DNA of 64,000 nucleotides. It comes from Fimbriimonadales bacterium (GTDB taxonomy: Bacteria > Armatimonadota > Fimbriimonadia > Fimbriimonadales > ATM1). Position 1 is the stretch's first letter. Each line of letters starts with the position of its first letter. The position numbers and the translations under genes are program-made. The notes under the pieces were generated by a model. It was not told the DNA's origin and did no database searches. It saw only the letters and a list, made by a program, of their open reading frames with translations. The stretch covers positions 1 through 64,000 of the forward strand of contig JBGTLG010000041.1 in the NCBI GenBank assembly GCA_041744215.1, read 5' to 3'. This document shows, piece after piece, positions 10,436 to 63,505 of the stretch.

Positions 10436-11320
10436 TTGATCAGGAAGAAAGCATCCGGCTTCACGCTGACGGAACTCATGGTCACCACCGGGGTTCTGGC
10501 GATCCTGGCCGCCATCTTGTTCCCAGTTTTTCGGGCCGCGATCGAGGCGGCCAAACGTACGCAGTGCGCTTCGAACTACCGACAACTGGGCGCGGCGCTG
10601 GCGATCTACCAGTCCGACTACGATGACACCCTCCCCCCGGTCAACTACAAGGACGTGGACTATCTCCACCCAGGTCACGATCAAACATGGGTCCAGACGC
10701 TGTTGCCATACACCCGCAGCTTTGCCTTGTTCATGTGTCCAGCCGACACAGGGCGCCGATCAGGCACCTTGTTGGCGGAGGACGCCGGAGGCGAGCCCGT
10801 CGACCCGTGGAGTGATTACTATCTGCGGTCGCTTCGATCGAACCTCGGCTACAACTACCTGTATCTCAGCCCGCTCGTGCAGTTGATCGACGGAGAGTGG
10901 GCAGCTTTTCCGGTCAAAGGTTCGCGGGTCGCGAATCCGGCTGGGACGCTCGCGTTTATTGACTCGGTTTGGGATCGATCCTCGGAAGGCCAGCCGATTG
11001 GTGGGGGCAGCTGGGTAGTCGTTCCCCCTTGCCGGTACACGCAGCGCAACGGGCAGATGATCGATTCTTTTGAATTTGCTGCGGGGACTCAGGCCTACTT
11101 CGGGTTTGATCCAGGAGGCTGGCAACCGACGAGCTCAATGTCCTGGCTTATCTATGGCGGTGCATGGCCGTGGCACAAAGGTCGGTTCACCATGATGTTT
11201 TTAGACGGTCATGTCAAGAACGTGCCCATGGAAGCATTGATCAAGGGTTGCGATATGCTGCCGGAGTGGGAAGGCCCAATTGTTGATTCTGAGGAATACA
11301 TATGGGATCTGAACGGGTAG
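10436..11320 (+). CDS. Prepilin-type N-terminal cleavage protein, DUF1559 / H-X9-DG family
   Basis: GFTLTELMVTTGVLAILAAILFPVF, CASNYRQLGAAL, CPAD, HKGRFTMMFLDGH. Confidence 0.92.
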   Translation: MIRKKASGFTLTELMVTTGVLAILAAILFPVFRAAIEAAKRTQCASNYRQLGAALAIYQSDYDDTLPPVNYKDVDYLHPGHDQTWVQTLLPYTRSFALFMCPADTGRRSGTLLAEDAGGEPVDPWSDYYLRSLRSNLGYNYLYLSPLVQLIDGEWAAFPVKGSRVANPAGTLAFIDSVWDRSSEGQPIGGGSWVVVPPCRYTQRNGQMIDSFEFAAGTQAYFGFDPGGWQPTSSMSWLIYGGAWPWHKGRFTMMFLDGHVKNVPMEALIKGCDMLPEWEGPIVDSEEYIWDLNG

Positions 11321-11544
11321 CTTTGTGGCGCACTCCCAGGTACTGGGTTATCTTTGCTTGTGTGATCGTCGGCGCGACCGCAATCGCGTATACGATCGCT
11401 GTTTGGGCCTCTGAAAGCGACGGTTCCGCGTCTGTCACCCAGCAGGGAAGCGGGGCAGGCGGTTCACGGGACTTGCAAAGACCGCTTCCGGGCCCCACTG
11501 TTCATGACACTATGAGCAAGAAGAAAGAGCTCGAGCGCAATTAG
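11302..11544 (+). CDS. Small single-pass membrane protein
   Basis: One TM helix (YWVIFACVIVGATAIAYTIAVW) then a low-complexity tail; overlaps the end of the prepilin-like gene. Confidence 0.55.
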   Translation: MGSERVALWRTPRYWVIFACVIVGATAIAYTIAVWASESDGSASVTQQGSGAGGSRDLQRPLPGPTVHDTMSKKKELERN

Positions 11545-45159: not shown

Positions 45160-47234
45160 TTTCGCTTCCTGACTGTCTTCGTCGATGCCTTTGCAGTGGA
45201 GAGATGCTCCTTCCACCACCTCAGAATCTCATTGAGGCGGTGAATTCGGAGATCCGGGGGGCCACTTCGGCTCATGCCGTGGCTCGTTGAGGAAGGATAT
45301 CTTACGAACCTGGTTTGAACGCCCAGCACCTTGAGCGCCGTGAACACTTGTTCGCCCTGTTCCACATTGCACCTTAGATCGCCCTCGCTGTGAATGACCA
45401 GCGTCGGCGTCTTGCAGTTCCCGATGTACCTGATCGGGCTCGAGTTCCACAAATGTTCAGGCTCGCTCCAAGCGTTGCCCTTCCAATATCGATCTGGCAT
45501 AAATGGGAAGTCGCTATTTAGCGCCATGCTCAGCATATTGCTGACGCATCTGTCAGTTATTGCGCCCGAAAACTCGTTGGTGTGGCCTATCACCCAGTTC
45601 GTCATGAATCCGCCGTAGCTCCCGCCCATCACACCCATGCGCTTTACGTCAACGTATGGGCGTGATTTCATGAATGCTGTGACGCCTTGGATGTCGATCC
45701 AATCGACATTCCCCCAGTCGCCCTTGATCGCATTGCAAAACGCTTCTCCATAACCCTTGCTTCCGCGCGGGTTGCTAAAGAACACCGCGTAGCCAGCTGA
45801 AGCGAGCACCTGGAATTCGTGGAAGTATGGAACGCCGTATTGCGCGTGTGGACCGCCATGAACTTCCAGCACCGCGGGGAGTTTGCCGGTTTTGTGTTTT
45901 GGAGGAAGCATCACCCAAACCTGCACCTTAGTTCCATCGCTCGACGTGATCCAGTGCATTTGCGGTTTGGAAAGCTCCAACTTCGAAAGGGTGTCTTTGT
46001 TTAGTGATGTAAGTTGCTTCACATCCGCTGAAGTCAATGAAATCTTTGCGACACCGATCTCTGATGGCAATAGTGCGTGTCCAGTGGTAACCGCCGCCAG
46101 CTTCCCATCGTCCGAGAGATTGCCGAAGGTGATTTCGGTCGCGCCGCTCGTGAGGAACTTGAGTTTCCCGCCTGTTATGTCGAGCGCTGCAAGATGCACT
46201 TCCCCGTGCCAGCCGATTTGCAATATCAGCCGTTTTGAGTCGGGAGACCAACAATAGTTCGATCCATAGCCCGCATCGCGAGTGTCGCTCAGCGTCCCGA
46301 CAGAAACGCAGTAATCCTCGCTCCCAGTCAAATCTCGCGCGCCGCCTCTTTTCGCGTCAATGACATACATCCTGTCATTGAGCGCGCTCCACAAGTCCTC
46401 CCGTCCTTCTACGCCGCTATAGGCGATCCACTTCCCGTCCGGCGACCACCTTGGATTGCTTTTCCCTCCATCCGGCTGGTTGGCGATCTCCGTGTGTTTT
46501 CCAGTCTTGGCATCAACCCGATACAGCCGCGACCTCCATGGTTTGAACAATGGGTTTCGATCAAGATTTGCGGCGACCACGAGTTCTTTCGAATCTGGAG
46601 ACCAGTCGAATTCAATCCATCCGAGCGGATCCTTGTCGAAGAGCCTCCTGTGCTCACCGCTCTGTGTGTCAACGACGTAAAGATGGTGTCTCTGTGCATT
46701 GAAGTACCCATCGCCGTCGAGCCTGTACCAGTAATCGTCGATCACCCGCGCTGGTGTGCTGAGCCCTTTTTCCTCGCGATCTTTCTTCGCTTTCTCCGTC
46801 CATTCCGGATCCGCTTCGCGAAAGGTGAAGGCTATCATCTTGCCATCCGGCGACCACTTGAACCCTCCAATCGCTCCTTCCGGCAACGACGTTAGCTTCG
46901 CTGCTTCTCCTCCGGACGCCTCAATGCAATAGATTTGCGGGTTTGGTTTTTCACGACCGCTGATCAGAGCAATTCTGCGACCATCATGCGACCATCTTCC
47001 GTGGCCATCTTTGCCTCCTTGCGTGAACGGACGAGGCTCGCCACCGGATACGTCCGCGATCCAGAGATTGGAAACGTAGTCGTTCTTTTCTCCGACGTGC
47101 TTTCTGGTGAAGAGGACTTTGCTGCCGTCGGGAGAGATTTGCGGATCAGAGACGAGCTTGTAAAGGAGTAAGTCTTCGGGGAGGACAGGGCGCTTGCCAG
47201 TTGAACGCTTGGGCGCCGGGGAGGGCTTTTTCAT
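45156..47234 (-). CDS. S9 family peptidase (acylaminoacyl/dipeptidyl peptidase) with beta-propeller
   Basis: WSPDG repeats, HGGPH, GGSYGG, HSEGDLRC, SHG. Confidence 0.94.
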   Translation of the reverse strand: MKKPSPAPKRSTGKRPVLPEDLLLYKLVSDPQISPDGSKVLFTRKHVGEKNDYVSNLWIADVSGGEPRPFTQGGKDGHGRWSHDGRRIALISGREKPNPQIYCIEASGGEAAKLTSLPEGAIGGFKWSPDGKMIAFTFREADPEWTEKAKKDREEKGLSTPARVIDDYWYRLDGDGYFNAQRHHLYVVDTQSGEHRRLFDKDPLGWIEFDWSPDSKELVVAANLDRNPLFKPWRSRLYRVDAKTGKHTEIANQPDGGKSNPRWSPDGKWIAYSGVEGREDLWSALNDRMYVIDAKRGGARDLTGSEDYCVSVGTLSDTRDAGYGSNYCWSPDSKRLILQIGWHGEVHLAALDITGGKLKFLTSGATEITFGNLSDDGKLAAVTTGHALLPSEIGVAKISLTSADVKQLTSLNKDTLSKLELSKPQMHWITSSDGTKVQVWVMLPPKHKTGKLPAVLEVHGGPHAQYGVPYFHEFQVLASAGYAVFFSNPRGSKGYGEAFCNAIKGDWGNVDWIDIQGVTAFMKSRPYVDVKRMGVMGGSYGGFMTNWVIGHTNEFSGAITDRCVSNMLSMALNSDFPFMPDRYWKGNAWSEPEHLWNSSPIRYIGNCKTPTLVIHSEGDLRCNVEQGEQVFTALKVLGVQTRFVRYPSSTSHGMSRSGPPDLRIHRLNEILRWWKEHLSTAKASTKTVRKRK

Positions 47235-47290
47235 CGACTGCTGTTTTACCCGCGCAGCAGCGTCCACTTGATCGAACGTAGGGGTACATC

Positions 47291-47746
47291 CTACGTCGGA
47301 AGGTAAGGGAAGAAAGTGCGATCCAGGCCGCCAAGCACCACTCGCCACTCGCCGTCGATTCGTCTCAGCGGCACACTGACAACTTCCCCCTCTCGTCCTT
47401 GGAAGTCGCGGAACACCAGCAGGACGATCTTCACAACTTGCTCGTCATCACTCACACGTTCCGTGCCCATGAACTGCCACAAGAAGACGAAGTTCTTGGC
47501 ACCTCGGTTGACACAGAAGTCCCATTGGTCTCGCAGCGGAGGGTCGGGGTTTTCAAGGTAGCTCAGTTCTGCAAGGCGATCCACGTCTTTCGTCGCAAGG
47601 GCCTCCATGAACTCCTGCGCGGCGCCTGCAGCAGTTTGGGTGCTTGAGAACAGCAAAAACACGACGGCTAGCAATCCAAGAACGCCAGTTACGACGATGA
47701 TGTTGACGCTGGATCCACCCTGCTGAAATTTGCTCATTTTCGACAT
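47291..47746 (-). CDS. Hypothetical membrane-anchored protein (NTF2/DUF4878-like)
   Basis: N-terminal TM, AAQEFMEAL, LRRIDGEWRV. Confidence 0.7.
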   Translation of the reverse strand: MSKMSKFQQGGSSVNIIVVTGVLGLLAVVFLLFSSTQTAAGAAQEFMEALATKDVDRLAELSYLENPDPPLRDQWDFCVNRGAKNFVFLWQFMGTERVSDDEQVVKIVLLVFRDFQGREGEVVSVPLRRIDGEWRVVLGGLDRTFFPYLPT

Positions 47747-47747
47747 C

Positions 47748-48152
47748 CTAAACTGGCCATCCGCGAAGCCGCGCGCTGCCAACTACATCTACGTACCACC
47801 GGCGACCGACCTTACCCAACGCCCACAGCGTTCGGTCAACTCGATTTGGGGGGAACCGCACGTCCACCACAGCAATTCGCCGATCTCCCTCGCCCAGGAT
47901 CTCGACCACCTCGTAGACCCCTCGGGCACGCAAGTTGAGAAAGACCTCGGCCGCGAGTTGGTCGAGGACTGGCCCAGCCTCGTTTGCCCCTGCCTCGATC
48001 GCCTTCGCGTGATCACCTTTCGCTACGGCCAGAACGAACCTCCGCAATGCCCCCTCGGGCCCGTTGAACTGATTCCGCGAGAAGACCGCGATCGTCATCG
48101 TTGCGAGGACGACGGAGGTGAGGATTCCAGTGATCGTGGTTGAGCCACGCAT
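47748..48152 (-). CDS. Hypothetical membrane-anchored protein (NTF2/DUF4878-like)
   Basis: N-terminal TM, GPEGALRRFVLAV, LGKVGRRWYV; same architecture as its neighbour. Confidence 0.65.
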   Translation of the reverse strand: MRGSTTITGILTSVVLATMTIAVFSRNQFNGPEGALRRFVLAVAKGDHAKAIEAGANEAGPVLDQLAAEVFLNLRARGVYEVVEILGEGDRRIAVVDVRFPPNRVDRTLWALGKVGRRWYVDVVGSARLRGWPV

Positions 48153-48314
48153 GAGGTTGGTGGAGGATACCAGAGGGGTTTATAGGATGGCTCCCAACTG
48201 ATTTTGAATCGTTTTTTCCAGATGCGGGGTATAAAGTTGACGCGCCGCTTGGAATCCAAGGGGCAGCTAACTCCCGGCGACCAGCCGGAGACCATCAGGA
48301 ACGGAGGTGTATCT

Positions 48315-48440
48315 ATGAAACGAATCTTGGCTATTTTTGCGACGATCGCCATCCTTGGTGCCTTTGCGGCCGGTTGCGGCGGCGATGACACCGGCGGAGA
48401 GAATGCGACTCCGCCGCCCGCACAAGGTGGGACCGAGTAA
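48315..48440 (+). CDS. Small (41 aa) lipoprotein
   Basis: GGAGGT SD; MKRILAIFATIAILGAFAAGC lipobox. Confidence 0.75.
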   Translation: MKRILAIFATIAILGAFAAGCGGDDTGGENATPPPAQGGTE

Positions 48441-48446
48441 GCCTCG

Positions 48447-49115
48447 CTACGAAAGCGATTCGTCTGAGCGCCCGTCGGGTTTCCCGGTGGGCGCTCTGTG
48501 ATTTAACAGCAACGCTTGAGAGGCCGTTCGGGCAGGGACGAAGTCTGGATTGTCACGGACGTACGATTCCAGGCAGGATCCTATCGCCAAGGCCGCCGAA
48601 ACCGCAACGTTTAAGGAAGTGACCATCCCGTACATGGGTATCGCGACGGTCTCATCGCATCTGGCTACGAGCTCCGGCTCTAAACCCTCTAATTCGCGGC
48701 CTAAAACGAGGGCAGCGGGATGCCCCCATTCCATGCCTGGCAGGGGTGTCGCACCTGGTACGAGCGTCAATCCGTAAATGCGGTAGCCGTCCGACCTGGC
48801 GTTATCGATGGCATCCTCCGCAGGTAGCCATTCGACAGGAACCCACTCAATGGCTGCAAAGCAGCCTGAAAAGTCGCGCTCCTTTCGCGGCAATGGGGTG
48901 AAGGAAACGGACTCAACCCGATACGCATCGGCAATCCGAAGAATGTTTCCATGATTTATTCCCTTGTCCAAACCTGAGCAGATGATCCTGATGGGGGCAC
49001 GCGGCAACTCTGTGAATCGAGCCCGTAATCCGGGGTCATCCGCCTCGCGGGAAGCCACCTTGACCACTTCCTCCAGCCTCTTGATCGCCGCCTTCTGGCG
49101 CTTGCTATCGCCCAT
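48447..49115 (-). CDS. TrmH/SpoU family RNA methyltransferase
   Basis: NHGNILR, VLGRELEGL, IPMYGMVTSLNVAVS. Confidence 0.9.
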   Translation of the reverse strand: MGDSKRQKAAIKRLEEVVKVASREADDPGLRARFTELPRAPIRIICSGLDKGINHGNILRIADAYRVESVSFTPLPRKERDFSGCFAAIEWVPVEWLPAEDAIDNARSDGYRIYGLTLVPGATPLPGMEWGHPAALVLGRELEGLEPELVARCDETVAIPMYGMVTSLNVAVSAALAIGSCLESYVRDNPDFVPARTASQALLLNHRAPTGKPDGRSDESLS

Positions 49116-49189
49116 ATGAGGATTCTACGGCTGAAACGAGGTGCGAGTGGGATTCGTAAACGTCATGTACAATTGGAGCGGAAAAATCT

Positions 49190-49750
49190 ATGGGTACTGG
49201 TCTAGTCATTTTCATTGTTGCAGTAGTGCTGCTGCTCGTCGTGGTGGTGGTCCTTTACAACGGCCTGGTCGGCGCGCGACAGCAGGTCAACAACGCCTGG
49301 AGTCAGATCGACGTGCAGTTGCGGCGGCGCTACGATCTGATTCCCAACCTCGTCGAGACCGTGAAGGGCTACATGAAGTTTGAGCAGGAGACGCTCGAAA
49401 AGGTCATGATGGCGCGTTCGGCAGCCATGGACGCCCAGGGCGTTCGCCAGCAAGCGTCGGCGGAGTCGGCTCTAACGAAGGCGCTGGGCGGGCTGTACGC
49501 CGTTGCGGAGAACTATCCTGATCTGAAGGCGAGCGAGAACATGCAGACGCTCCAGGAGGAACTCAGCACGACTGAGAACAAGATCGCCTATGCGCGGCAG
49601 TTCTATAACGACTCCGTGATGAGCTACAACACCAAGCGAGAGACTTTCCCCTCGAACATCATCGCTCAGATGTTCAACTTCAAGTCACGGGATATGTTCG
49701 AGATTGACCTTCCGGAAGCGAGAGAGCCGGTTAAGGTCGAGTTCACGTAG
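49190..49750 (+). CDS. lemA: LemA family protein
   Basis: [41 protein letters not shown]. Confidence 0.96.
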
Positions 49751-50771: not shown

Positions 50772-50865
50772 GGGGCCGGCTGGGGGCTGGTGTCTCCTCT
50801 GGTCTTCAAAACCAGTGCGGCGTCGCAAGGCGCTGGGTGGGTTCGATTCCCACACGGTCCCGCCA
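50772..50865 (+). tRNA. selC: tRNA-Sec (anticodon UCA)
   Basis: 94 nt; 8-position acceptor stem; 6-bp D stem with TGGT loop; anticodon arm CTGGT-CTTCAAA-ACCAG; long variable arm; GTGGG-TTCGATT-CCCAC T arm; G discriminator and CCA; TGGTAGTCT -10 upstream. Confidence 0.95.
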
Positions 50866-51028: not shown

Positions 51029-51099
51029 GACAGAAAAGGGCAATCCCCCGTGCGGGGAGCGCAAAGCCACGGGCCGTGAGGCAAGCCGGGTTGCCTGTC
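51029..51099 (+). ncRNA. Cyclic di-GMP-I (GEMM) riboswitch, compact variant
   Basis: P1 GACAG/CTGTC; AAGGGCAA-stem-GCGCAAAGCC-stem-AGCCGGGTTGCC core matches GEMM motifs. Confidence 0.85.
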
Positions 51100-51515: not shown

Positions 51516-52625
51516 ATGAGAAAACTAATCGCGTTCCTGTTGGTGGCGGCGATTTCGTGCTGCTCCTTCGCAGCAGATTTGGGTGTCGGCGACAAAGCTC
51601 CTCCGTTGAAAATTGCCGAGTGGGTCAAAGGTGAGCCTGTCAACACCCTCGAGAAGGGGCGCGTATACGTTGTCGAGTTTTGGGCGTCCTGGTGTGGTCC
51701 TTGCGTCGAAGGGATCCCACATTTGACAGAACTCGCGAAAAAGTACGCTGAGAGCGTTACGATCGTTGGCGTCAACATCTGGGAAGACCCTGAGGCGACA
51801 GACACTTCTTACTTTTCGACCGTCAAGTCGTTTGTCTCGAGGATGGGTGAGAAAATGGACTACGTCATCGGCATCGATGGGCCGAATGGCGATATGGCAA
51901 AAACTTGGATGCAGGCAGCGGGGCAAAATGGCATCCCAGCCGCCTTCGTCGTCAATGGCGATGGGTTAATCGTTTGGATTGGGCATCCAATGAATCTTGA
52001 TGGTGTGTTGGAAAAAGTTGTTGCCGGGTCGTGGGATTTGGAGACTGCGAAACAGCACGCGAAAAGCGAGCAAGAGGCTAACGAACTTCTCGGCAAGCTG
52101 TATCAGGAGATGCAGGATGTTGTCGAAGATGAAGTCAAGTCCCTCGAGTTTGCCGACAAGCTTGAAAAATTGATTGAGGAAAAGCCCAGCTTGTTAAGAC
52201 ACCTTGCTGGCTTGAAGTTTGGGAGCTTGGTGGCGAAGCATCCTGAAAAGGCCATGGAAGCCGCTCGCGCGTTCTTTAAGGGCGAACTGCGCGATGACGT
52301 TGACTTCCTCATGACGGTGTCAATGGGAATTCTTGAGCGCGAAGATCCAAAGATGGACTACGTTCTTGCCCTTGAGATGGCTCGCAAATTCGTTGACTCG
52401 GTTGGCGTAGACAGTCCGTTTTCGCTCGATGTTTTGGCTATGGCTCATTATCGAAATGGAAACTATGTTGAAGCGATTTTGATTGGGGAGAAGTCTGTCG
52501 CGCTGATTGATGCTGATATTCAAGCTGCGGTCGATTCTGGAAAGGAAGTTCCAAGAGGTTTTATACAGGTTCGCCAGTTTTTGTCTGATCGCGTGGAGAT
52601 GTATAAGAAGCGGGGCAAGGGCTAG
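51516..52625 (+). CDS. TlpA-like thiol-disulfide oxidoreductase with helical/TPR C-terminus
   Basis: Signal peptide, VGDKAPPL, EFWASWCGPC, GIPAAFVV, WIGHPM. Confidence 0.9.
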   Translation: MRKLIAFLLVAAISCCSFAADLGVGDKAPPLKIAEWVKGEPVNTLEKGRVYVVEFWASWCGPCVEGIPHLTELAKKYAESVTIVGVNIWEDPEATDTSYFSTVKSFVSRMGEKMDYVIGIDGPNGDMAKTWMQAAGQNGIPAAFVVNGDGLIVWIGHPMNLDGVLEKVVAGSWDLETAKQHAKSEQEANELLGKLYQEMQDVVEDEVKSLEFADKLEKLIEEKPSLLRHLAGLKFGSLVAKHPEKAMEAARAFFKGELRDDVDFLMTVSMGILEREDPKMDYVLALEMARKFVDSVGVDSPFSLDVLAMAHYRNGNYVEAILIGEKSVALIDADIQAAVDSGKEVPRGFIQVRQFLSDRVEMYKKRGKG

Positions 52626-52821: not shown

Positions 52822-52836
52822 TCGAGGAGGATGCCG

Positions 52837-54045
52837 ATGGGCGCTGTGGCTTTTGTGGCGTTCGATGGCTTCTATGTAGCCGCCTATTCGAGGTCGCACC
52901 CCGAGGCCGGAAAGTCAATCGTGGTGCTAAAGGACCGGAGAGTCATCGACGCTTCGGCTGATACGCGGCGCCTGGGTGTCGGACCTGGGATGACAGCAGC
53001 CGAGGCCAAATACACAGCACGTGGCTTTGAGACTGCCCCGATCTTTGTCGAATATCGCAACGAAGACTTTTTGCCGTTCTCCGAGAGCTATTTGAAAGTC
53101 TGCGCAGAATACGCGTCGGCCGTCGAGCCAGTAGCGGAACATTGCGCTTTCTTGGACCTCGGGTTGCTTGCTGGAGCGCGCGAGGTTGCTTATGCGCTGG
53201 CGGCTGATTTGTATCACGCAGTAAAGGTGTGCGCCCGTATCGGGATCGCGGAATGCAAACTGGTCGCAAAGATTGCTGCGGAGCGCGCCGTGGGCGACGT
53301 AGAAATCGTTGCTGCACGGGGAGATGAGGCATACATTGCTCCCCTTCCAATCGAATCGCTTTGGCGTGTCGATCGCAACTGCCTATTGCGACTACGAAAT
53401 CTTGGGTATCGAACTGTCGGGGAGGTGGCAGCTTTTGATGCTGCACTTCTGCGAAAGCATTTTGGAGACGAAGGCTTTCGTATCTCACAACTTGCGAAAG
53501 GGATCGACAGATCTCGGATTGAGAGCATCTATCCGCCCGATGACATCCGTGCGCAGTTTCACTTTCCGCAACCCGCCAGACTGTCGAGCGAGATTGAACC
53601 TTCGATATTCGATCTTGCGCGCACACTATCGGAGGAACTATCAGCGCGATCGCGCATGGCGAGCATCATTGAACTCGCTGCTACATTTGAAGATAGCTCT
53701 ATGCGCTTGACGTGCAGAGAATTTGCAAAGCCCATGCATACCTACGGCGCACTGCTAACTGGATTGCGTTTAACATTGCGGAACATAAACATTGATGAAG
53801 AATTGGCTTCTCTGTCGGTGAAGCTGAATAAGGTCGTCGCACTCGACACACGGCAAATCTCGATGCCAGGGACCTCAGCTGATGCCGGCAGCAAGGACTT
53901 GATTCTAGAATCAGCAGAACGTACGGCAAAACAACTGCAAGAAACGTTTGGTGAGGAGTCTGTGTTGCGTGCAAGCAACCGATTTGTTGAGCGAAGAGAC
54001 TTGCTCTTGCGCGCGTGGAAGGAGGCAACATCTTGGAGCGATTGA
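52837..54045 (+). CDS. imuB: ImuB-like catalytically inactive Y-family polymerase
   Basis: Y-family fold motifs (GMTAAEA, IGIAECKLVAKIA, LPIESLW); catalytic SIDE replaced by VAEHC; clamp-like QISM; overlaps dnaE2. Confidence 0.82.
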   Translation: MGAVAFVAFDGFYVAAYSRSHPEAGKSIVVLKDRRVIDASADTRRLGVGPGMTAAEAKYTARGFETAPIFVEYRNEDFLPFSESYLKVCAEYASAVEPVAEHCAFLDLGLLAGAREVAYALAADLYHAVKVCARIGIAECKLVAKIAAERAVGDVEIVAARGDEAYIAPLPIESLWRVDRNCLLRLRNLGYRTVGEVAAFDAALLRKHFGDEGFRISQLAKGIDRSRIESIYPPDDIRAQFHFPQPARLSSEIEPSIFDLARTLSEELSARSRMASIIELAATFEDSSMRLTCREFAKPMHTYGALLTGLRLTLRNINIDEELASLSVKLNKVVALDTRQISMPGTSADAGSKDLILESAERTAKQLQETFGEESVLRASNRFVERRDLLLRAWKEATSWSD

Positions 54046-57000
54046 TTGCAAGATGGCGAGAGACTGGCAGGTGGTGGGAGGGAGAGCCTGAGCGCGAGTT
54101 CGCTCGTTTTCTCGATAATGATAACATCGTCCGCGAGTCTGTCCGCGAGCACACTTGTGTCATTCAACCAAAAAGACTAATGGTTAAAGAGGATGTGACA
54201 TTTGAAGTTGCCCGCACTGTCGACTACGAAGTGATAAAACGCGAAACTCGTGATTCGCGATTAGAATTGGAAAGAATCAATACCCTAAAAGCTTTGCCAG
54301 GTTCATCGAGTTATGTTCCACTGCATTGCGTTTCGGCTTACTCATTTGGCAGGAGCTCGCTTACTCCTGAGCGCATCGTGGCGAAAGCATACTTAGGCGG
54401 CATGCAATCCGTTGCGATGGCAGACCGTTTTTCGCTTTCAGGATCACACGCTTTCTGCAGCGCTGCGCGCGACATAGGAATCAAACCAATCATAGGGGCG
54501 AGCATTGAAATGGAGAGCGGAGGCGAGCTGGTTTTGCTTGCTATGAGCGCAGATGGCTATATCAATCTGTCTCGCTTGATCACTCGATGTCATCTCGATG
54601 AGCCGCGCCAGCACCCACTTTGCAACTGGGATCGACTGGCGGAGTATTCAGATGGTTTAGTTTGCCTGACAGGCGGGCATTACGGGCCCATAAATATTGC
54701 CCTTATCGGCAGGCAGCGACCAGCCGCACGCGATGCAATCCTACGCTTAAGAAAGATTTTTGGCACTGAAAGGCTTTATGTCGAAATTGAACGGTCTATG
54801 GCGCATTGGGAGCTGTCAGTCAACATCGCACTACTCGAGATAGCCAGCGACTTTGGCCTGCGCGCTATTGCCGGAGGAACGATCGCACACGAGCATAAGG
54901 ACACTTTCGCAGCACAAGATGCTCTCCTTTGCGCAGAGACACTCTGCACCGTTGAGGAAATCATTGGTCGAAAGCCACAGCGCCACGCAGACCAACCACC
55001 TATCAAGCCTCTCCCACTGCGTTGGATGAACGCCGAAAGACGGTTTCGCGATGGCAAAGAGTTTGAAGCGCTATTTCGAGATCACCCTGAATTGATCACA
55101 AACGCCAAGCAGATTGCCAGCGATGCGCCAGATTGGCCGCTACCAAATAGGCCGCCGTTTCCAAGCTTCGAAGACGCACCTGAATGCATTTTACGCAATG
55201 TTGTTTATGACGGCGCGGCACGAAGGTACTTTCACATGACTCCAAAGGTCCGCAAGCGGATTGACATGGAGTTGAAACGAATATGCGATTTGGGCTTTGC
55301 TAGCCATTTCCTAGCAATGTGGGAAGCCTGCAGATGGGCGAAGAGCCGTAGCATTTTGTATAGTGCACGAGGCTCGGTAGTCGATAGTGCAGCAGCATAT
55401 TGCCTTGGGCTGTCGCGCATTGATGCAATTGAGCACGACTTGCACTTCGACCGCTTTTTACCTGGGGACGGAAGCAAGCGACCGGACATTGACATTGATT
55501 TTGAAGCCAGTCGGCGAAATGACGTGCGTGAGTTTTTTGTGCGTCGCTACGGTCGCGAGCATGTGGCCGGCGTAGCAGCGATAGCAACGTATCAGGGCCG
55601 CGGAATCGTGCGTATGATTGGCAAGGCGATGATGCTTCCAGAAAGCGTCATCGATCTTCTTGCTAAGAGAATGCACGGTTCAGTTACAGGTAGGAATATC
55701 GAAGCTGCGCTGCTGACACGACCAGAACTAAGAGACAGTGGCATTCCGAAAGAGCGTTTTCTTCTGCTCTTTGAAATCGCGAGGCAGGTCGATGGTTTGC
55801 CAAGAGGAATCGCCGCGCACTCGTCTGGATTGGTTCTATCGTCCGTTCCCATTTGCGATACTGTTCCGGTCATGAATTCTGCACTCGGAGACGCGCCTAT
55901 CATACAATGGGACAAGTACTCTTCGAAGCACTACTTCGACAAGTTCGATATCTTGTGTCTAAGGGGGCAAGATGTTCTTGCTGGAACGCAGCAGCGAGTA
56001 CGCCTTAACTCCGGAGCCGACCTAAACGTTGAGCGCATACCATTAGATGACGAGATGACGTTCGAAGCTTTTCGCCAAGGCAATCTCATCGGAATTCCCC
56101 AAAGCGCGTCACCTGCCATGCGTCAAGCTCACATGCGATTGCGCACGCGCAATCTGCACGATGCGAGTTTAGTGCAGGCTGGGATTCGCCCAGGAGTAGG
56201 CGGAGCAGTGAAGATCAATGCGCTGATTCGCAGACGCAGAGGATTGGAGAATTACGCATATCCTCATCCTTTATTGGAAGAAATACTTGGGATGAGCTAT
56301 GGGATTATAGTGTTTCAGGAGCAAGTTGACCAGTTATTACAGGGATTCGCGGGATACACGTCAGGTGAGGCGGAGGAGATACGTGAGAAGATCCATAAGC
56401 TTCGCGCGAACGATTGGGGAGACACAATTCACGATGTTCTCATTGAAAGAATTCTCAGTCGTGGATTCTCCAACGAAGTCGCGGAGCACGTTTTTGATTT
56501 AGTCTCAGGTTTTCGCGGCTATGGCTTTGCGCAAGGACACGCACTATCGTTTGCGGAGATATCAATTCGTTGCACTTATCTACAAAACAACTACCCGTCT
56601 GAATACTTTGCCTCGTTGCTAACTTCTCAGCCAGCAGGATACTACGGACCAGGAACGATCGCCAATGAAGCACGCATTCGTGGCGTAAGAATATTGCCGA
56701 TCGATATCAATAGCAGTGATGAGATCTTTACTGCCAGCGACCGTGCAATACGCGTGGGACTGATGCAACTGCACGGCCTTTCCGCTCCAACAGCCCAGCG
56801 CATCGCAGGCAATCGCCCCTATCGATCGATCTTTGATTTTTGTGCGCGCGCCAAACCGAATGCTGAAGAACTTGAGTTTCTGATATTGTCTGGAGCTTTC
56901 GATACCCTGCACTCGAATCGCCGTGCGCTTTTATGGGTACTTCCTGAAGCGATCAAACTTGCACATGTTTCGACACCTGGCAATGTGCTCTTCGAGGATG

Positions 57001-57500
57001 AGCCAGTGGGCGTTGTTCCAGAAAATATATCCGACTTTTCGGCTTATGAAAAAGCCGTACTTGAGCGGGCAATGCTCGGCATGGACATTAAAGAGCACCT
57101 CATGTCATTCGAGCGCGATCGCATCAGAGGGAAAGGCGGTATCACTTGTGCTGACGCTGCCGTTCTTATGCCAGGAAAGAAAGTTGTCGTTTGCGGGCTG
57201 GCCATGCGGCTTAGATTTCCACCAACGGCGTCTGGACGGCGTGTCGTGTTTTTCGATTTAGAAGATGAAACCTCGCTGTTGAACGTTACATGCTTTGATG
57301 AAACTTATCAGCGCGACGGCCACGCAATCATATGCTCCCCATTTGTTACCCTGATCGGAACTAGTCAAGAACGTGACGGGCACCCCGCATTCTTAGCGCA
57401 CCGTGTTTTCCCTTATCGACTTAGCGCAGAGGCAGCCACCTTCGCCCAAGAGAGGCGGGCTGTGCATGCCGAAGATTTCATCATCAGAAAGGGGAGGTAG
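54015..57500 (+). CDS. dnaE2: Error-prone DNA polymerase III alpha subunit DnaE2 (ImuC)
   Basis: LHCVSAYSF PHP start, RGS, RPDIDIDFE, KFDILCL, FQEQV, YGFAQGHA, SQPAGYY, OB fold LEDET; linked to imuB. Confidence 0.9.
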   Translation: MEGGNILERLIARWRETGRWWEGEPEREFARFLDNDNIVRESVREHTCVIQPKRLMVKEDVTFEVARTVDYEVIKRETRDSRLELERINTLKALPGSSSYVPLHCVSAYSFGRSSLTPERIVAKAYLGGMQSVAMADRFSLSGSHAFCSAARDIGIKPIIGASIEMESGGELVLLAMSADGYINLSRLITRCHLDEPRQHPLCNWDRLAEYSDGLVCLTGGHYGPINIALIGRQRPAARDAILRLRKIFGTERLYVEIERSMAHWELSVNIALLEIASDFGLRAIAGGTIAHEHKDTFAAQDALLCAETLCTVEEIIGRKPQRHADQPPIKPLPLRWMNAERRFRDGKEFEALFRDHPELITNAKQIASDAPDWPLPNRPPFPSFEDAPECILRNVVYDGAARRYFHMTPKVRKRIDMELKRICDLGFASHFLAMWEACRWAKSRSILYSARGSVVDSAAAYCLGLSRIDAIEHDLHFDRFLPGDGSKRPDIDIDFEASRRNDVREFFVRRYGREHVAGVAAIATYQGRGIVRMIGKAMMLPESVIDLLAKRMHGSVTGRNIEAALLTRPELRDSGIPKERFLLLFEIARQVDGLPRGIAAHSSGLVLSSVPICDTVPVMNSALGDAPIIQWDKYSSKHYFDKFDILCLRGQDVLAGTQQRVRLNSGADLNVERIPLDDEMTFEAFRQGNLIGIPQSASPAMRQAHMRLRTRNLHDASLVQAGIRPGVGGAVKINALIRRRRGLENYAYPHPLLEEILGMSYGIIVFQEQVDQLLQGFAGYTSGEAEEIREKIHKLRANDWGDTIHDVLIERILSRGFSNEVAEHVFDLVSGFRGYGFAQGHALSFAEISIRCTYLQNNYPSEYFASLLTSQPAGYYGPGTIANEARIRGVRILPIDINSSDEIFTASDRAIRVGLMQLHGLSAPTAQRIAGNRPYRSIFDFCARAKPNAEELEFLILSGAFDTLHSNRRALLWVLPEAIKLAHVSTPGNVLFEDEPVGVVPENISDFSAYEKAVLERAMLGMDIKEHLMSFERDRIRGKGGITCADAAVLMPGKKVVVCGLAMRLRFPPTASGRRVVFFDLEDETSLLNVTCFDETYQRDGHAIICSPFVTLIGTSQERDGHPAFLAHRVFPYRLSAEAATFAQERRAVHAEDFIIRKGR

Positions 57501-59337: not shown

Positions 59338-60609
59338 ATGAGCTTGTTCGAAACCGAGCCCTCCGCGGACAAGATGCCGCTTGCAGCTCGAATGCGGCCG
59401 GAGTCACTGAGCGACTTCGTTGGCCAACAGCATCTGCTAGGGGTGGACTCCCCAATCAGGCAAGCACTAGAGCGGGGAGCACTGGGGTCTGTCATCCTTT
59501 GGGGTCCGGCAGGGTCGGGCAAGACAACTCTTGCGCGGCTTATCGCGCAACAGGGACAAGCCCACCTCGAAGCGTTGAGCGCAGTAACTGCAGGTGTCGG
59601 TGAGATTCGCAAGGTTGCCGACGCGGCAAAGCATCGCAGCAAATCAACGATCCTGTTCTTGGACGAGATACACCACTTTACGCGTACCCAGCAAGACTTT
59701 CTGCTTGGATTAGTAGAAGAAGGCCGGCTGACACTGATAGGAGCGACAACGGAGAACCCCACATTCAGCTTGGCGACGCCCCTTCTTTCCCGGTGTCGAG
59801 TGCTGGTTCTAAAGCCTCTAGCGGATGGAGAGATCGGTGCGATCACCCAGCGAGGTGCGCGAGAACTCGGCGTCGAGATAACTGCTGAGGCCCTGTCTAC
59901 AGTCGCCCGATTCGCAAACGGTGACGCCCGCGTCGCGCTCAATGCCGTCGAGTTCGGGGCTCAACTCGCACACCCATCGAGTGAGATTGGCATTGAGCAT
60001 GTGTCTCAGGCGCTGAATCGACCGCTGGTCCGATACGATCAAAAGGGCGGTCAGCACTACGACGTGATCTCGGCGTTCATAAAATCAGTGCGCGGAAGCG
60101 ATGTTGATGCTGCCCTGCATTACCTAGCGCGCATGATCAGGGCGGGAGAAGATCCACGGTTCATCGCCCGACGGCTCGTGATCCTGGCCAGCGAGGACAT
60201 CGGCAATGCCGCGCCGATGGGTTTACTGATCGCGATGTCTGCATTCCACGCTGTTGAGCGAATTGGGATGCCCGAGTCGCGGATAGTGCTGGCTCAGGCG
60301 ACGATCTTCTTGGCCGCTTCGCCTAAGTCGAACAGCGCCTACCTGGCGATCGACAAAGCGCTCGCAGACCTGGATCGAGTTCCGGCGCCGCGCATACCGG
60401 ACTACTTACGTGATGCCAATACAAAGCGGCACGACGTGGTCGTCGATGAAACGGGCTACCTCTACCCCCACGACTCGGGTGGCTGGGCTCGGCAGGAGTA
60501 CCTCTCTTCGGGTCATGGCCTGCTGCTACCGTACTATGTCCCGCTATCGACCGGATTCGAATCGAAACTCGGGTCATTCTTGGAATCACTCGACGAGACA
60601 CAAAGCTAA
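59338..60609 (+). CDS. rarA: Replication-associated recombination protein A (RarA/MgsA)
   Basis: PLAARMRP, GPAGSGKTT, LDEIH, ATTENP, ISAFIKSVRGSD, ASEDIG, PKSNS. Confidence 0.96.
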   Translation: MSLFETEPSADKMPLAARMRPESLSDFVGQQHLLGVDSPIRQALERGALGSVILWGPAGSGKTTLARLIAQQGQAHLEALSAVTAGVGEIRKVADAAKHRSKSTILFLDEIHHFTRTQQDFLLGLVEEGRLTLIGATTENPTFSLATPLLSRCRVLVLKPLADGEIGAITQRGARELGVEITAEALSTVARFANGDARVALNAVEFGAQLAHPSSEIGIEHVSQALNRPLVRYDQKGGQHYDVISAFIKSVRGSDVDAALHYLARMIRAGEDPRFIARRLVILASEDIGNAAPMGLLIAMSAFHAVERIGMPESRIVLAQATIFLAASPKSNSAYLAIDKALADLDRVPAPRIPDYLRDANTKRHDVVVDETGYLYPHDSGGWARQEYLSSGHGLLLPYYVPLSTGFESKLGSFLESLDETQS

Positions 60610-60610
60610 T

Positions 60611-60952
60611 AGAGGCCTCAACCTAGACGGACTTCGATTCCGCCGAAGCGGTCTCAAGTTCCGTTCGTTCCGGTTAGACCGGTAAGAATCTCTCAACGCG
60701 AACCTCCGAGTTGCCTCGGGTGCTTGCGGCTTTGACGAGAGATGCTCAACTCTTTCGAGCAACGTCCCAGGCAGAAGCCTCTAGTAGAGACTGCCGCCAG
60801 CTGCCTTCGAAATTGGGCGAACCCTCTTTCCCTGGCTTCGATCCGACTTGCGTCGGAGAATCGGTCATCGCGTGCTGACTCGGTTGCCCGAGTCTGCGGC
60901 TTCAACGTGATTCCGACTCTTGCGAGCCTTCGATGGTCCGGCGGAAGCCTCT
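60611..60952 (-). ncRNA. Large (~342 nt) structured non-coding RNA of unknown class
   Basis: 5' AGAGGCUUC pairs with 3' GAGGCCUCU; at least 6 hairpins capped by GCAA/GAAA/UUCG on the minus strand; starts 7 nt after TGTTATAAC. Confidence 0.78.
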
Positions 60953-60959
60953 GACGGAA

Positions 60960-60968
60960 GTTATAACA
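60960..60968 (-). promoter_or_regulatory. Extended -10 promoter for the ncRNA
   Basis: Minus strand TGtTATAAC; predicted +1 is the A at 60952, the first base of the closing stem. Confidence 0.65.
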
Positions 60969-61030
60969 CAGAAATCGGCGAATTGTGCGATTTTTGACAA
61001 GAAAAACGGTGTATTTTCACTCTTGGAAGA

Positions 61031-61061
61031 CTTCCCACAAGTTATGCACATCTTATCAACA
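61031..61061 (+). promoter_or_regulatory. Three tandem DnaA-box-like 9-mers
   Basis: CTTCCCACA (61031), TTATGCACA (61042), TTATCAACA (61053) at 11-bp periodicity, next to an AT-rich tract. Confidence 0.55.
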
Positions 61062-61091
61062 CTCTTTGAGCTTGGGTGCCAGTTAGTGAGG

Positions 61092-62765
61092 TCAGTCGGC
61101 TGGGTTGTGCCGGATGTACAGCGACTCCGCAATTTTTGCAACGATGTAGACCACCACGACATTGGCGGCGACTGCAAACATCGCAATGAAAGGCGGCCAG
61201 GCACCCAGGAACAACAGTGGAATCACGCCTAGCATAGCTGGAGTCAGTGCCAGAACCGAGCCGAGCATCTGGATAAGCGCACGAAAGCTCCGCTGGGTCG
61301 GATCGTCCATGTCCGGAAAGAGCAGCAGGACGGCAAGTTGAACAGCGGTCACGACGACCGCAATCGATGGGAGTCCAATCGCGCCAGCGAGAGCAAACTC
61401 GTAGGCTGATGGCCTTGCAAGAAGCAGCGTGAGCGCGGCTAAGAGAGAGATGAGTATGGGAACTAGGCTATGCGCGATGATTTCGATAAGGCAGATTGAA
61501 AGAGGTGAGAACGGCAGCGGCTTCTGCAAGTCGACCCTCCTCAGCATCTCAAGAAAGCCCGATTGACCAATACCAAGAGCGAACGAGCCTATCAGCAGGG
61601 CCTGGAGAGGCAGGACGACTCCGACGAAACGATCGCTCGCGTCCAGAACTGCGAGCAATGATATGCCGCATGTCATTACAACGAAGAGGATCGTAAACGA
61701 AACCTGTGTGCGCATCACAAAGAGCGTTTCCCGCCACAGCATTGCGAACGGGCCCACGACCTTCGACTCCTGCAGGAAGCGGAGTCTTCGAACTTTGAGC
61801 CGCCCTTCTCTCGCCGCCTGAACAAAAGCCAGCCCGAGGTCGCCAGACCTTTGAACCTCCTGCCTGCCAAGACTCGCGGCGCTATGGCGCGCTGCCATGT
61901 CGTACAGGTGATCCGCCTGCTTGAGAGCGATTCCAATCAGAGTGACAGATCCTATCAGTAGGAAGCCTGCGCCTACAAGTCCCGACGTCCAATTCGCGTA
62001 GATTGGCATGAGGGCGAACTCAGCTGCGGCCGCGGCCGGGTACAGGATCAATCGGGTGGCGTCGCTCGAAGCAAGTTCTACCAGGAACTTAACCGTATCC
62101 TCCTGCCGAAATGCAGCAACGATCACGGCACCAAAAGCGAGTCCAAACGCGACAAGCACCGACAAGGTCGCTTTGCGTGCCAATCGTGCGGCGGATGAAT
62201 CGCGATTGATGAACATACCCAACGCATAACTTAGCGCAACACCAAACAACGAGACCAGCAGAAACGCTCCTATCATTGTCTTTCCGACCATGGGAGCGTG
62301 GGCGGGATCTGGCAGGTTCTCGAAGAGAAGACTGATTCCTTCGGCGCTTCTTCGGCCGCCGAAGATAAGAATGATGACCGGAACGAAGAGTGTGACCATG
62401 TAGTCGATGACAAATCGATGAGCCATGACGAGACGCGGAGAGATTGGTGTAGGAAACAGTACGTCTGAGTCAGCTTGCCGATAGGTTCCAGGCGGACGGA
62501 ACACGCCAAGGATGCGAAAAACAAGGACGAGCGCAAAAACAAGCAAAAACAGCGCAAAGACGAATTCGATCCCAGGAAGGGACAACTTCGGCATCCCGTT
62601 CGGGATCGGCTGGGGGCGCCGACCCTCGAACAGATTGCCGACGAACATCATAAACCACCAACCGATGATGAGAACTGCGCCGATCAACCGTGTTGGCGAG
62701 CGCAGCGCTCGCCTGAACGAGTTGATGACTGTTCGGGCTGTTAAGTGAACAAGCGGTTGCATCAA
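61092..62765 (-). CDS. Putative ABC exporter permease
   Basis: Many TM helices in two halves; overlaps the ABC ATPase stop codon. Confidence 0.82.
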   Translation of the reverse strand: MMQPLVHLTARTVINSFRRALRSPTRLIGAVLIIGWWFMMFVGNLFEGRRPQPIPNGMPKLSLPGIEFVFALFLLVFALVLVFRILGVFRPPGTYRQADSDVLFPTPISPRLVMAHRFVIDYMVTLFVPVIILIFGGRRSAEGISLLFENLPDPAHAPMVGKTMIGAFLLVSLFGVALSYALGMFINRDSSAARLARKATLSVLVAFGLAFGAVIVAAFRQEDTVKFLVELASSDATRLILYPAAAAAEFALMPIYANWTSGLVGAGFLLIGSVTLIGIALKQADHLYDMAARHSAASLGRQEVQRSGDLGLAFVQAAREGRLKVRRLRFLQESKVVGPFAMLWRETLFVMRTQVSFTILFVVMTCGISLLAVLDASDRFVGVVLPLQALLIGSFALGIGQSGFLEMLRRVDLQKPLPFSPLSICLIEIIAHSLVPILISLLAALTLLLARPSAYEFALAGAIGLPSIAVVVTAVQLAVLLLFPDMDDPTQRSFRALIQMLGSVLALTPAMLGVIPLLFLGAWPPFIAMFAVAANVVVVYIVAKIAESLYIRHNPAD

Positions 62766-63505
62766 GATTCTGACGCCGCGACTTCAGGCTCCTCCGTGAG
62801 CTTGAGAAACACTTGCTCGAGAGTCGCTCCATCCATGTTCGCACTTTCGCGCAATTGTGTTATCGTTCCTTCGGCCACGACATGCCCGCGCGAGAGAATC
62901 ACGACACGGTCACAGAACTTTTCGGCGGTATCCAGGAGGTGGGTGCTGATCAGAATCGCCGCCCCATCGTCGCGTGCTCGGGATAGCTCCTGTTTGAATT
63001 CATGTGCTCCCCGTGGGTCAATCCCGATGAGCGGCTCGTCCAAGAGCAAAACGTTTGCACGATGCACCAACGCACACGCAACCGCAAGCTTCTGCTTCAT
63101 TCCCTTGCTTAGCGTGGCAACAAACTGGTCCCGCTTTTCATAGAGATCGTATCGCTTCAGCAGTTCGTTCCCGAGTCGGTCGTACTCGTCTAAGGAGTCA
63201 AAGCACATTGCTATGAAGCGCAAGTGCTCGCGGACGGTAAGCAGCTCATACAGCGAAGGAACTTCTGGCACAAAGGCGAGTCCCGATTTTGCCTGGGCTT
63301 GGTCGAGCAGCAGGTCATGGCCGTTGATGAGAATGGCCCCTCCTGTAGGGCGCAGGATTCCCGCAATACATCGCATCGCAGTCGTTTTGCCTGCACCGTT
63401 TGGGCCAAGGAGTCCTACAATTTCCCCAGGTCGTGCTTCAAACGAGATCCCGGAGACTGCGCGGAAGCCGCGATAGTCTTTGACCAATCCGATGACTTCA
63501 AGCAT
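62762..63505 (-). CDS. ABC transporter ATP-binding protein
   Basis: GPNGAGKTT, LSKGMKQK, LLDEP, STH. Confidence 0.95.
   Translation of the reverse strand: MLEVIGLVKDYRGFRAVSGISFEARPGEIVGLLGPNGAGKTTAMRCIAGILRPTGGAILINGHDLLLDQAQAKSGLAFVPEVPSLYELLTVREHLRFIAMCFDSLDEYDRLGNELLKRYDLYEKRDQFVATLSKGMKQKLAVACALVHRANVLLLDEPLIGIDPRGAHEFKQELSRARDDGAAILISTHLLDTAEKFCDRVVILSRGHVVAEGTITQLRESANMDGATLEQVFLKLTEEPEVAASES

Follow-up and report, generated by a model that had tools for sequence, protein, structure and literature searches.

The stretch of DNA analysed here, called the window throughout (64,000 nt, positions 1 to 64,000 of contig JBGTLG010000041.1 from a Fimbriimonadales bacterium), carries a structured, intergenic RNA on the minus strand at 60611-60952. 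On one side the RNA faces the convergent gene rarA/mgsA (59338..60609, plus strand; considered here as context only), which encodes an AAA+ ATPase (Pfam MgsA_C 2e-56, AAA_assoc_2, and AAA), and on the other side lies an ABC-exporter operon on the minus strand, with an ABC_export gene (61092-62765) and an ABC_tran gene (62762-63505). The rarA stop codon is 1 nt away from the last paired base of the RNA. An earlier note on this DNA had proposed a large free-standing noncoding RNA (ncRNA) at this place. The RNA consists of two homologous domains of ~170 nt in tandem, joined by a 3-nt linker, and we are confident that it represents a real, new family of tandem-domain ncRNAs. The earlier note had missed that these homologous domains are each closed on themselves, as well as the conserved, operator-like array upstream of the RNA.

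All of the strings quoted in that note were found exactly at their positions on the minus strand (11/11: eight hairpins, AGAGGCUUC at 60944-60952, GAGGCCUCU at 60611-60619, and TGTTATAAC at 60960-60968), and its description of this strand as highly structured agrees with the folding results. The minus-strand fold of 356 nt has a minimum free energy of -160.4 kcal/mol (z -6.31), which none of 100 dinucleotide shuffles equalled. For the plus strand of the same DNA, the corresponding value is -136.4 kcal/mol (z -1.73), and 6 of the 100 shuffles equalled it. In the paired columns of the domain alignment, G-U cells outnumber A-C cells 59 to 9, and therefore the minus strand is the RNA strand. The GNRA and UUCG loops are also confined to it. 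The low plus-strand z value and the G-U to A-C ratio rule out an RNA transcribed from the plus strand or a structure in the 3' untranslated region of rarA.

A genome scan with the RarA protein provided 79 loci (numbered with an L below), with one genome per species, and the search for homologues of the RNA covered these rarA neighbourhoods. Seventeen of the 79 loci (L001-L016 and L018) belong to the Fimbriimonadales, Fimbriimonadia or Armatimonadota, with RarA identities of 58-77%, and 62 are from other phyla. Sixteen loci were assessable, as L016 has no DNA downstream of rarA. Searches with nhmmer and blastn using the RNA region matched L001 (88% identity), L013, L005, L011, L002, and L018, in all cases directly downstream of rarA and on the opposite strand, and reading of the rarA-downstream DNA added related RNAs in L004, L009, and L014. 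Protein-coding DNA follows rarA in L003, L006, L007, L008, L010, L012, and L015. Altogether, rarA-convergent homologues are present in 9 of the 16 assessable loci; when a relocated form described below is included (three more loci), 12 of the 16 Fimbriimonadia loci have the RNA. The rarA-downstream regions of relatives, to which the earlier note had pointed, thus contain syntenic homologues with compensatory changes. Its proposal that the RNA is lineage-specific also holds for this set, in which homologues occur in Fimbriimonadales loci and none in the 62 loci from other phyla. Judged from these comparisons, the family appears so far to be restricted to the Fimbriimonadales (Armatimonadota) and to be previously uncatalogued.

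Domain 1 of the window RNA (60786..60952, 167 nt; all coordinates of the RNA are on the minus strand) is closed in the minimum free energy fold by helix P1, in which 60938-60952 are paired with 60786-60800. It contains the P2 hairpin GGCUC-GCAA-GAGUC (60915-60928), the long irregular stem P3 (60858-60914) with a tip hairpin at 60877-60894, and the hairpins P4 (60842-60857) and P5 (60803-60836). The domain is supported by covariation and scores 135.4 bits and 127.3 bits, respectively, with the covariance models R1 and R2 described below. Domain 2 (60611..60782, 172 nt) has the same architecture in the minimum free energy fold as well as in the RNAalifold consensus (48.1 bits with R1, unseeded; 105.1 bits with R2). 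The 5' strand of its P1 starts at 60782 and the 3' strand extends to 60611; P2 is CUC-GAAA-GAG (60750-60759), the outer stem of P3 pairs AUCUCUC (60737-60743) with GAGAGAU (60688-60694) below a tip hairpin at 60706-60719, P4 is found at 60670-60682, and P5 includes CCGC-UUCG-GCGG (60640-60651). The linker between the domains is ACU (60783..60785). In this plan, P1 encloses a junction of four arms, i.e., the GNRA hairpin P2, P3, P4, and P5, and P3 is a long stem with the GGCAAC tip and the invariant loop AAGCCGCAG. In domain 1 this mostly unpaired motif occupies the P3 internal loop (60894..60902; A51-A58 are invariant or nearly so in 12 units), and its counterpart in domain 2 is AAGCCGCAA (60724..60732); AAGCCGC occurs once in each domain. 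The homology is also apparent at the sequence level. Both halves start with AGAGGCUUCyGCC, followed by a CUCG-NAA-GAG hairpin, AAGCCGCA(G/A), a GGCAAC-tipped hairpin, and two further hairpins, and both end with (A/G)G(U/C)CUCU, which pairs with the start of the same half.

The local hairpins listed in the earlier note all fall in helices that are supported by covariation. The result was mixed for its longer-range helices: AUCUCUC/GAGAGAU and GAAUC/GAUUC belong to supported helices, but GGCAG/CUGCC is part of a pairing swapped between the domains and GCCAG/CUGGC lies outside the supported model. Likewise, UCGAAG and CGGAA do recur four times each in the window RNA, but the recurrence is not conserved (UCGAAG is absent from L013, L011, L002, L018, and L009).

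When folded singly, all 12 clear domains of the family adopted the common P1-P5 layout. Two-domain RNAs are present in the window, L001, L005, L011, and L013, and the linker has exactly 3 nt in all five. L002 and L018 have a single domain of 166 nt. The RNAs of L004 (~620 nt, ~11290-11912, minus strand) and L009 (~560 nt, ~4700-5262, minus strand) contain about four domains by eye; the models R1 and R2 detected three domains in L004 (E values of 6e-18, 0.0014, and 0.075) and two in L009, and the outermost segments are too divergent to score. Because relatives have one, two or about four copies, the domain is the functional module. In the domain tree, the duplication shared by the window RNA and L001 is older than their split, and the deep nodes are unresolved. 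For L005, the tree pairs the two domains with each other (88/90 support), a hint that duplication has occurred repeatedly or that gene conversion has taken place.

The P1 strands of the two halves are nearly identical, and therefore the 5' strand of one domain could also pair with the 3' strand of the other. The earlier note had assumed a variant of this, namely that the two ends of the RNA pair and close the whole molecule. This closure was disfavoured: in all five two-domain RNAs, the summed duplex energies favoured own-domain pairing over swapped pairing by 9.4 to 14.5 kcal/mol (-52.7 versus -42.1 kcal/mol in the window RNA). An alternative middle hairpin, GGCAGUCUCU-ACU-AGAGGCUUCUGCC, is also possible in the window RNA. 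Because of the own-domain energies, the two separately closed domains found in both the minimum free energy and the RNAalifold folds, and the existence of single-domain members, we assume that the native fold resembles two beads on a string, with the swapped form as a possible alternative or a route to oligomers.

A plain MAFFT alignment of all 12 units misaligned the 3' half of the domain (P4 and P5), and RNAalifold kept 19 pairs, which led to a model built from five units and a realignment. This covariance model, R1 (five domains, 182 positions, 40 pairs), was used to search the window and the 79 loci, 1.28 Mb in all. It detected 14 domains at E<=0.0034, all of them at the RNA loci described above, that is, two per two-domain RNA, including the unseeded domain 2 of the window, and one each in L002, L018, L004, and L009. 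Nothing was detected elsewhere in the window or in the 62 loci from other phyla. The model R2, built from these 14 domains, detected 16 domains, with one more each in L004 and L009, and with filters off it also matched L014 at 11292-11461 (21.2 bits).

The main covariation count was made on the model-fitted alignment of the 14 domains, which favours the model; in this alignment, 89.3% of the cells are standard pairs versus 74.2% after shuffling, and 31 of the 40 pairs are altered on both sides. None of 500 shuffles reached any of five measures, although the sequences are related and come two per genome, so that these and the following shuffle counts overstate significance and are not probabilities. 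When the pairing partners were slid by 1-3 columns, pairing dropped to 37-47% (at most 46.5%). The 19 RNAalifold pairs of the plain MAFFT alignment of 12 domains gave a similar picture, with 95.0% of the cells paired and both-side changes in 11 of the 19 pairs. Here, too, none of 500 shuffles reached the observed value, and slid partners paired in 35-56%. In addition, an alignment of three full-length orthologues contains 20 pairs with compensatory changes.

No known RNA family accounts for these RNAs. At gathering thresholds, Rfam 15 matched only a tRNA-Sec and a c-di-GMP-I riboswitch in the whole window, both away from the RNA. With permissive filters at E<=10 in the region 60300-61300, the sole match was sot0042 (9.8 bits), which lies on the other strand in the promoter region. 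At gathering thresholds there were no matches in seven homologous loci, none at E<=1 in the long form of L004, and only the neighbouring tRNA in the L007 form. The exclusion of RNase P, tmRNA, SRP RNA, and 6S RNA in the earlier note was therefore correct, and the absence of matching models extends to riboswitches, OLE, raiA, ROOL, GOLLD, and HEARO. The tRNA-Sec lies at 50772-50861 on the plus strand (78.4 bits) and is followed by the c-di-GMP-I riboswitch (51029-51098, plus strand; 37.3 bits, slightly above the threshold of 35 bits), upstream of a redoxin/thioredoxin-like gene (51516-52625). In type III toxin-antitoxin systems of the ToxI type, a co-oriented gene for an endoribonuclease toxin immediately follows a series of short RNA repeats in tandem. 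A type III antitoxin RNA was rejected, as the units are 160-180 nt long and no co-oriented protein gene follows. Searches of the open-access full-text literature found nothing on this RNA, and none of the words Armatimonadetes, Fimbriimonas, rarA, tandem, and DnaA occurs in the main text of PMC11109978.

The extended -10 element TGTTATAAC (60960..60968, minus strand) comprises TG at 60967-60968 and TATAAC at 60960-60965. In nine loci a -10-like hexamer (TATAAC, TATATT, TACTAT, or TATAGT, often preceded by TG) precedes the start of P1 by 6-7 nt. From this fixed distance, transcription of the window RNA is predicted to start at the A at 60952, which is also the first base of P1 of domain 1. After the last P1 strand follows the U-rich tail AUUAGCUUUGUGU (60598..60610, minus strand), which overlaps the rarA stop codon and is likely to be the region of intrinsic termination. 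When the tails of nine homologues were compared, U-tracts were clear in L002 (AUUUUUUU), L011 (UUUAAAUUUUUU), and L013 (ACUACUUUUU), and also in L004 and L009. From these sequence features, we infer the promoter, the terminator, and the transcript ends of the window RNA. At 60995-61015 (minus strand), ~45-55 bp upstream of the predicted start, there is a semi-conserved T-rich element (TTTTCTCCA, TTTTTCCAT) with equivalents in L001, L005, L011, and L013, which resembles an inverted, degenerate copy of the boxes described next.

Three 9-mers that resemble DnaA boxes are present about 80-110 bp upstream of the predicted start (61031..61061, minus strand), all in one orientation and 2 bp apart, resulting in an 11-bp phasing. 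The array reads TGTTGATAA ga TGTGCATAA ct TGTGGGAAG, with the boxes at 61053-61061, 61042-61050, and 61031-61039, respectively. It aligns across nine loci and reads TGTGGATAA ct TGTGAATAA ct TTTGAAAAA in L011. The middle box is the sole perfect TGTGNATAA in the 64 kb. Throughout the 1.28 Mb there are 14 same-strand box pairs with exactly 11-bp spacing, 8 of which are located 74-100 bp upstream of this RNA. The phased template TGTGNA-N5-TGTGNA-N5-TGTGNA with at most two mismatches is even more specific, as all of its seven occurrences in the 1.28 Mb precede members of this RNA family, including the relocated L007 type. The whole window is not enriched in DnaA boxes (19 matches versus 22.2 expected); only the local phased array stands out. 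Box pairs with 11-bp spacing also occur at L032 2655 and 20466, L033 17419, L037 8040 and 17413, and L048 4144. L032, L033, and L037 are AT-rich, and two of them are labelled Dictyoglomota. None of these pairs, including that in L048, is related to the RNA, and they may be due to chance in AT-rich DNA or may be real DnaA sites. According to PMC6070618, the DnaA consensus is TT(A/T)TNCACA, which equals TGTGGATAA, and the array fits it in sequence, single orientation, and 2-bp spacing. The same paper describes weak sites in the E. coli oriC that are 2 bp apart and are filled cooperatively from a strong site, and according to PMC13220808, DnaA is a transcription factor at promoters with two or more boxes.

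In L007, L010, and L012, weak partial matches of R1 led to a divergent element of ~265 nt on the other side of the divergent PD40-rarA gene pair (L007 2208-2470, L010 ~7500-7770, and L012 ~8280-8550, plus strand). This relocated form starts with GGAGGCGAUUGCC, contains CGAAGCCGCAG as well as GGGCAAC-tipped hairpins, ends with GUCUCCGCCUCC, and folds with a z value of -4.37. Upstream of it there is a -10 element, and the same array of three boxes recurs there in the form TGTGGATTT ct TGTGCATAA cc TGTGCACTC. The recurrence of both before the relocated RNA indicates that boxes, promoter, and RNA travel as one module beside PD40-rarA. A co-oriented tRNA-Ala(CGC) follows after ~55 nt, and the element faces the 3' end of PD40. 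The relocated RNA may be cotranscribed with this tRNA and released by tRNA processing. An nhmmer match of the L007-type RNA in L002 (1053-1183, E 0.036) was discarded, as the sequence there appears to be coding.

On the rarA side of the RNA the gene order is kept among the loci: (imuB-like, dnaE2-like)-Fic-PD40(-)-rarA(+)-RNA(-). The neighbour on the far side varies and can be an ABC exporter, a redoxin-domain protein, an M28 peptidase, or QueG; large redoxin-domain proteins are found there in L013 and L009. The imuB-like gene (IMS family) of the window overlaps the start of the dnaE2-like gene for a second Pol III alpha subunit (52831-57500, plus strand), an arrangement known from SOS mutagenesis cassettes. 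L002 has the same pair of genes upstream of rarA, and a dnaE2-like gene alone was found among the examined open reading frames (ORFs) of L005 and L014. Together with Fic, PD40, and rarA, these genes form a conserved replication and repair neighbourhood.

Wherever the RNA was found, its 3' end is only ~0-40 nt away from a convergent stop codon. The gap to the rarA stop is 1 nt in the window, L013, and L014, 10 nt in L011, and 39 nt in L005, and in L002 there is an overlap of 2 nt. This arrangement would suit a cis-acting 3'-end element, in which the structured transcript, or convergent transcription as such, serves the neighbouring gene. It might insulate against read-through or terminate it, or it might regulate rarA (PD40 in the L007 type) by antisense action or by collision. 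In line with it, the RNA in L007, L010, and L012 also has a gene end in front of it, namely the 3' end of PD40, from which the tRNA-Ala separates it, and the PD40-rarA side is kept while the far-side neighbour changes. However, an insulator requires neither invariant unpaired motifs nor a junction of five helices, nor a domain that is copied one to about four times. Moreover, a promoter and an operator array belong to the RNA itself and move along with it; its overlap with the rarA mRNA would be a few nt only, barring read-through of rarA; and tight packing alone can explain the linkage, because no neutral DNA is left for breakpoints. Taken together, we regard a cis-acting element as unlikely, albeit worth keeping in mind. 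A riboswitch or another cis-regulatory leader was rejected, as the RNA runs into the convergent 3' end of rarA in the window and in nine related loci; it thus has no downstream co-oriented gene, as already stated in the earlier note.

Each domain could instead be an aptamer, and the transcript a free-standing, metabolite-responsive small RNA or a buffer without an expression platform. A size of ~170 nt, a junction of several helices, and unpaired nucleotides that stay invariant while the stems covary freely are all characteristic of aptamers, and tandem homologous aptamers are known, e.g., in the glycine riboswitch. That riboswitch also has two homologous, separately closed domains of aptamer size and a very short linker. 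However, the window RNA has neither an expression platform nor a downstream gene nor a match to a riboswitch family, and its number of domains varies from one to about four. Apart from the tRNA-Ala in the L007 type, no co-oriented gene follows at any locus; furthermore, the stem and U-tract at the end of the RNA look constitutive, and no junction-dependent alternative pairing is evident. Ligand sensing is therefore, in our view, a rather improbable function.

It is also conceivable that the DNA matters and not the RNA, i.e., that the locus is part of an origin or a DnaA-titrating or -reactivating locus (similar to datA or DARS), with the transcript as a by-product or an aid to DNA opening. The 9-mers with 2-bp spacing are laid out as in the cooperative arrays of the E. 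coli oriC (PMC6070618), the GC content falls to 0.49 just upstream of the RNA, and the stretch from boxes to promoter is AT-rich in L011 and L013. In addition, replication and repair genes are near (imuB-like, dnaE2-like, and rarA in the window, and gyrA in L011). However, selection acts at the RNA level and on one strand, as is evident from the G-U excess, the compensatory changes, and the restriction of GNRA and UUCG loops to the minus strand. Neither dnaA nor dnaN is present in the window or in the seven loci examined, the array has only three boxes, the genes of the window converge on the locus from both sides, which is the opposite of a usual origin, and the GC skew of the 64 kb has no turning point at 61 kb. 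On these local grounds, judged within the 64 kb, an origin of replication at the locus is not supported; origins have a DnaA-box cluster with an unwinding element at the GC-skew switch, usually close to dnaA/dnaN. We consider a DNA element in general as very unlikely. The minimum of the cumulative GC skew of the window is found at 47000-49200, where the genes switch from minus to plus, and is probably a mere gene-strand effect. DnaA-controlled promoters and oriC arrays share with the candidate array TGTGNA(A/T)AA 9-mers in one orientation and 2 bp apart, with near-consensus boxes plus a weaker third one (PMC6070618 and PMC13220808), but the candidate array comprises three boxes only, 75-110 bp upstream of an RNA gene and with no dnaA or dnaN nearby.

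Exchange of P1 strands could lead to dimers or oligomers, so that the RNA would be self-assembling, as reported for ROOL, GOLLD, and OLE. Several features are compatible with this: the 3' end of the RNA has the self-complementary sequence (U)AGAGGCCUCU(A); all domains have almost the same P1 strands; the 5' strand of P1, AGAGGCUUCUGCC, is almost invariant in 14 of 14 units, while the other stems vary; swapped pairing is just 9.4 to 14.5 kcal/mol worse; and the linker length is constant. Homo-oligomers of large bacterial RNAs, namely of ROOL, GOLLD, and OLE, are described in PMC12286853, and the window RNA might form them via its shared P1 strands. However, each of the five two-domain RNAs prefers own-domain pairing, which would also be the first to arise as the RNA is transcribed, single-domain members exist (L002 and L018), and an invariant P1 could equally well be a tetraloop receptor or a protein site. 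Self-assembly as the essence of this RNA thus has little probability.

The RNA region is overlapped by chance ORFs of 58-70 codons' product length (58-70 aa), for which Pfam gave no match. None of the reading frames remains open throughout the homologues, with three or more stops in each of the six frames of L013, and the closest relative, L001, differs from the window by a 1-nt indel. The view of the earlier note that there is no convincing ORF is thus confirmed, and a small protein gene is ruled out by the broken frames, the indel, and the missing Pfam match. A blastn search of 72,556 plasmids and 50,697 phages did not match the RNA, and no second copy was found in the 64-kb window, nor was there more than one locus in any of the related loci of 10-21 kb, so that in the sequences covered there is no trace of dispersed copies, which the earlier note had named as a sign of a repeat. 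A repeat, a mobile-element remnant, or a small protein gene, which the two similar halves and the overlapping ORFs might suggest, is hardly credible in view of the single locus, the lack of a plasmid or phage match, a Pfam match and a conserved frame, and the compensatory substitutions in the stems.

These considerations lead back to an independently transcribed, modular ncRNA that would act in trans. Transcription would start ~7 nt past the extended -10 element and would end at the U-rich tract at the rarA stop codon. Each domain would adopt a compact tertiary fold and bind a single partner molecule, for which a protein is the likeliest candidate and a small ligand a possible one. The invariant GAGGC/GCCUC of P1 may be a receptor for the conserved GNRA loops, given that receptors for tetraloops are known, or a protein site. 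The transcript as a whole would be a trans-acting, multivalent RNA that scaffolds or sequesters its partner, and its level would be set by a regulator at the three phased DnaA-box-like sites, most simply DnaA, which would couple it to the replication status. We infer the action in trans, the partner, and the control by DnaA from the features described above; the specific role as a scaffold, a sponge, or a ribozyme is a guess. A multivalent binding mechanism in trans under DnaA-like control is a tentative proposal, somewhat more apt to fail than to hold. The explanation as a whole, i.e., a new ncRNA gene with its own transcription, binding in trans, and a level set by DnaA, is the best that we can offer, and we see it as evenly balanced between right and wrong.

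The logic of such a mechanism is not without parallel. Among the protein-sequestering RNAs, such as CsrB/RsmZ and 6S RNA, a noncoding transcript likewise provides repeated binding units, the number of which depends on the species. However, the units of CsrB/RsmZ are short GGA hairpins, whereas those of the present RNA are five-helix units of 160-180 nt with GNRA or UUCG loops. 6S RNA, none of whose models matches the window RNA, forms a single long rod that a central bubble interrupts. OLE, the raiA motif, ROOL, and GOLLD are similar in another respect: all are free-standing and not cis-regulatory, with many covarying helices, GNRA loops, invariant junction nucleotides, a narrow phylogenetic range, and a function that is not evident from the sequence. 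They differ in that none of them matches in Rfam 15 and in that the window RNA adds a specific upstream operator array. In addition, a build of one to about four copies of one ~170-nt domain is not known to have been described for any of these four RNAs.

Several observations weigh against this interpretation. The U-tract of the window itself is weak. The extended -10 element reported in the earlier note is exact as a string and conserved in position in nine loci, but a scan of 60300-61400 for consensus sigma-70 promoters and terminators called nothing; it did not call the -10 element because the -35 region is weak. With regard to the array, the third box is degenerate. The phased template was adopted because a search with at most one mismatch per box found three boxes only in L011 and L014 among the RNA loci; this search also found two unrelated places in the AT-rich L011. 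An 11-bp phasing of direct repeats is a typical feature of the OmpR/PhoB family; a winged-helix response regulator of this type would suit the phasing equally well, and the boxes might be its sites and not those of DnaA. Four of the 16 assessable loci (L003, L006, L008, and L015) have no copy of the RNA within the rarA-neighbourhood DNA searched. No gene for an RNA-binding protein is conserved beside the RNA. A role in cis would also be compatible with the constant position of the RNA next to the 3' end of a convergent gene. Finally, the two reservations about the covariation counts given above, the model-fitted alignment and the relatedness of the sequences, belong here, too.

Going further, transcription of the modular ncRNA might be wired directly to DnaA via a cooperative three-box array, and the RNA might target replication or repair proteins in trans, for instance by binding or sequestering RarA, which is a homotetramer, or another fork-associated factor; it would thus form an RNA arm of the replication-stress response in Armatimonadota. 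This is a speculative extension that we consider quite improbable as it stands.

Large structured bacterial RNAs without a family are rare, and OLE, ROOL, GOLLD, and raiA have led to new biology. The RNA described here offers assets for experimental tests, namely one module that is present in one, two, or about four copies, a defined promoter and operator, and a constant link to PD40-rarA. Even if it remained functionless on paper, it would be a sound new Rfam family, from a phylum, the Armatimonadota, with few RNA annotations. If both the control by DnaA and a protein partner proved to be true, the RNA would be an RNA output of the replication initiator, and to our knowledge no such output has been described.

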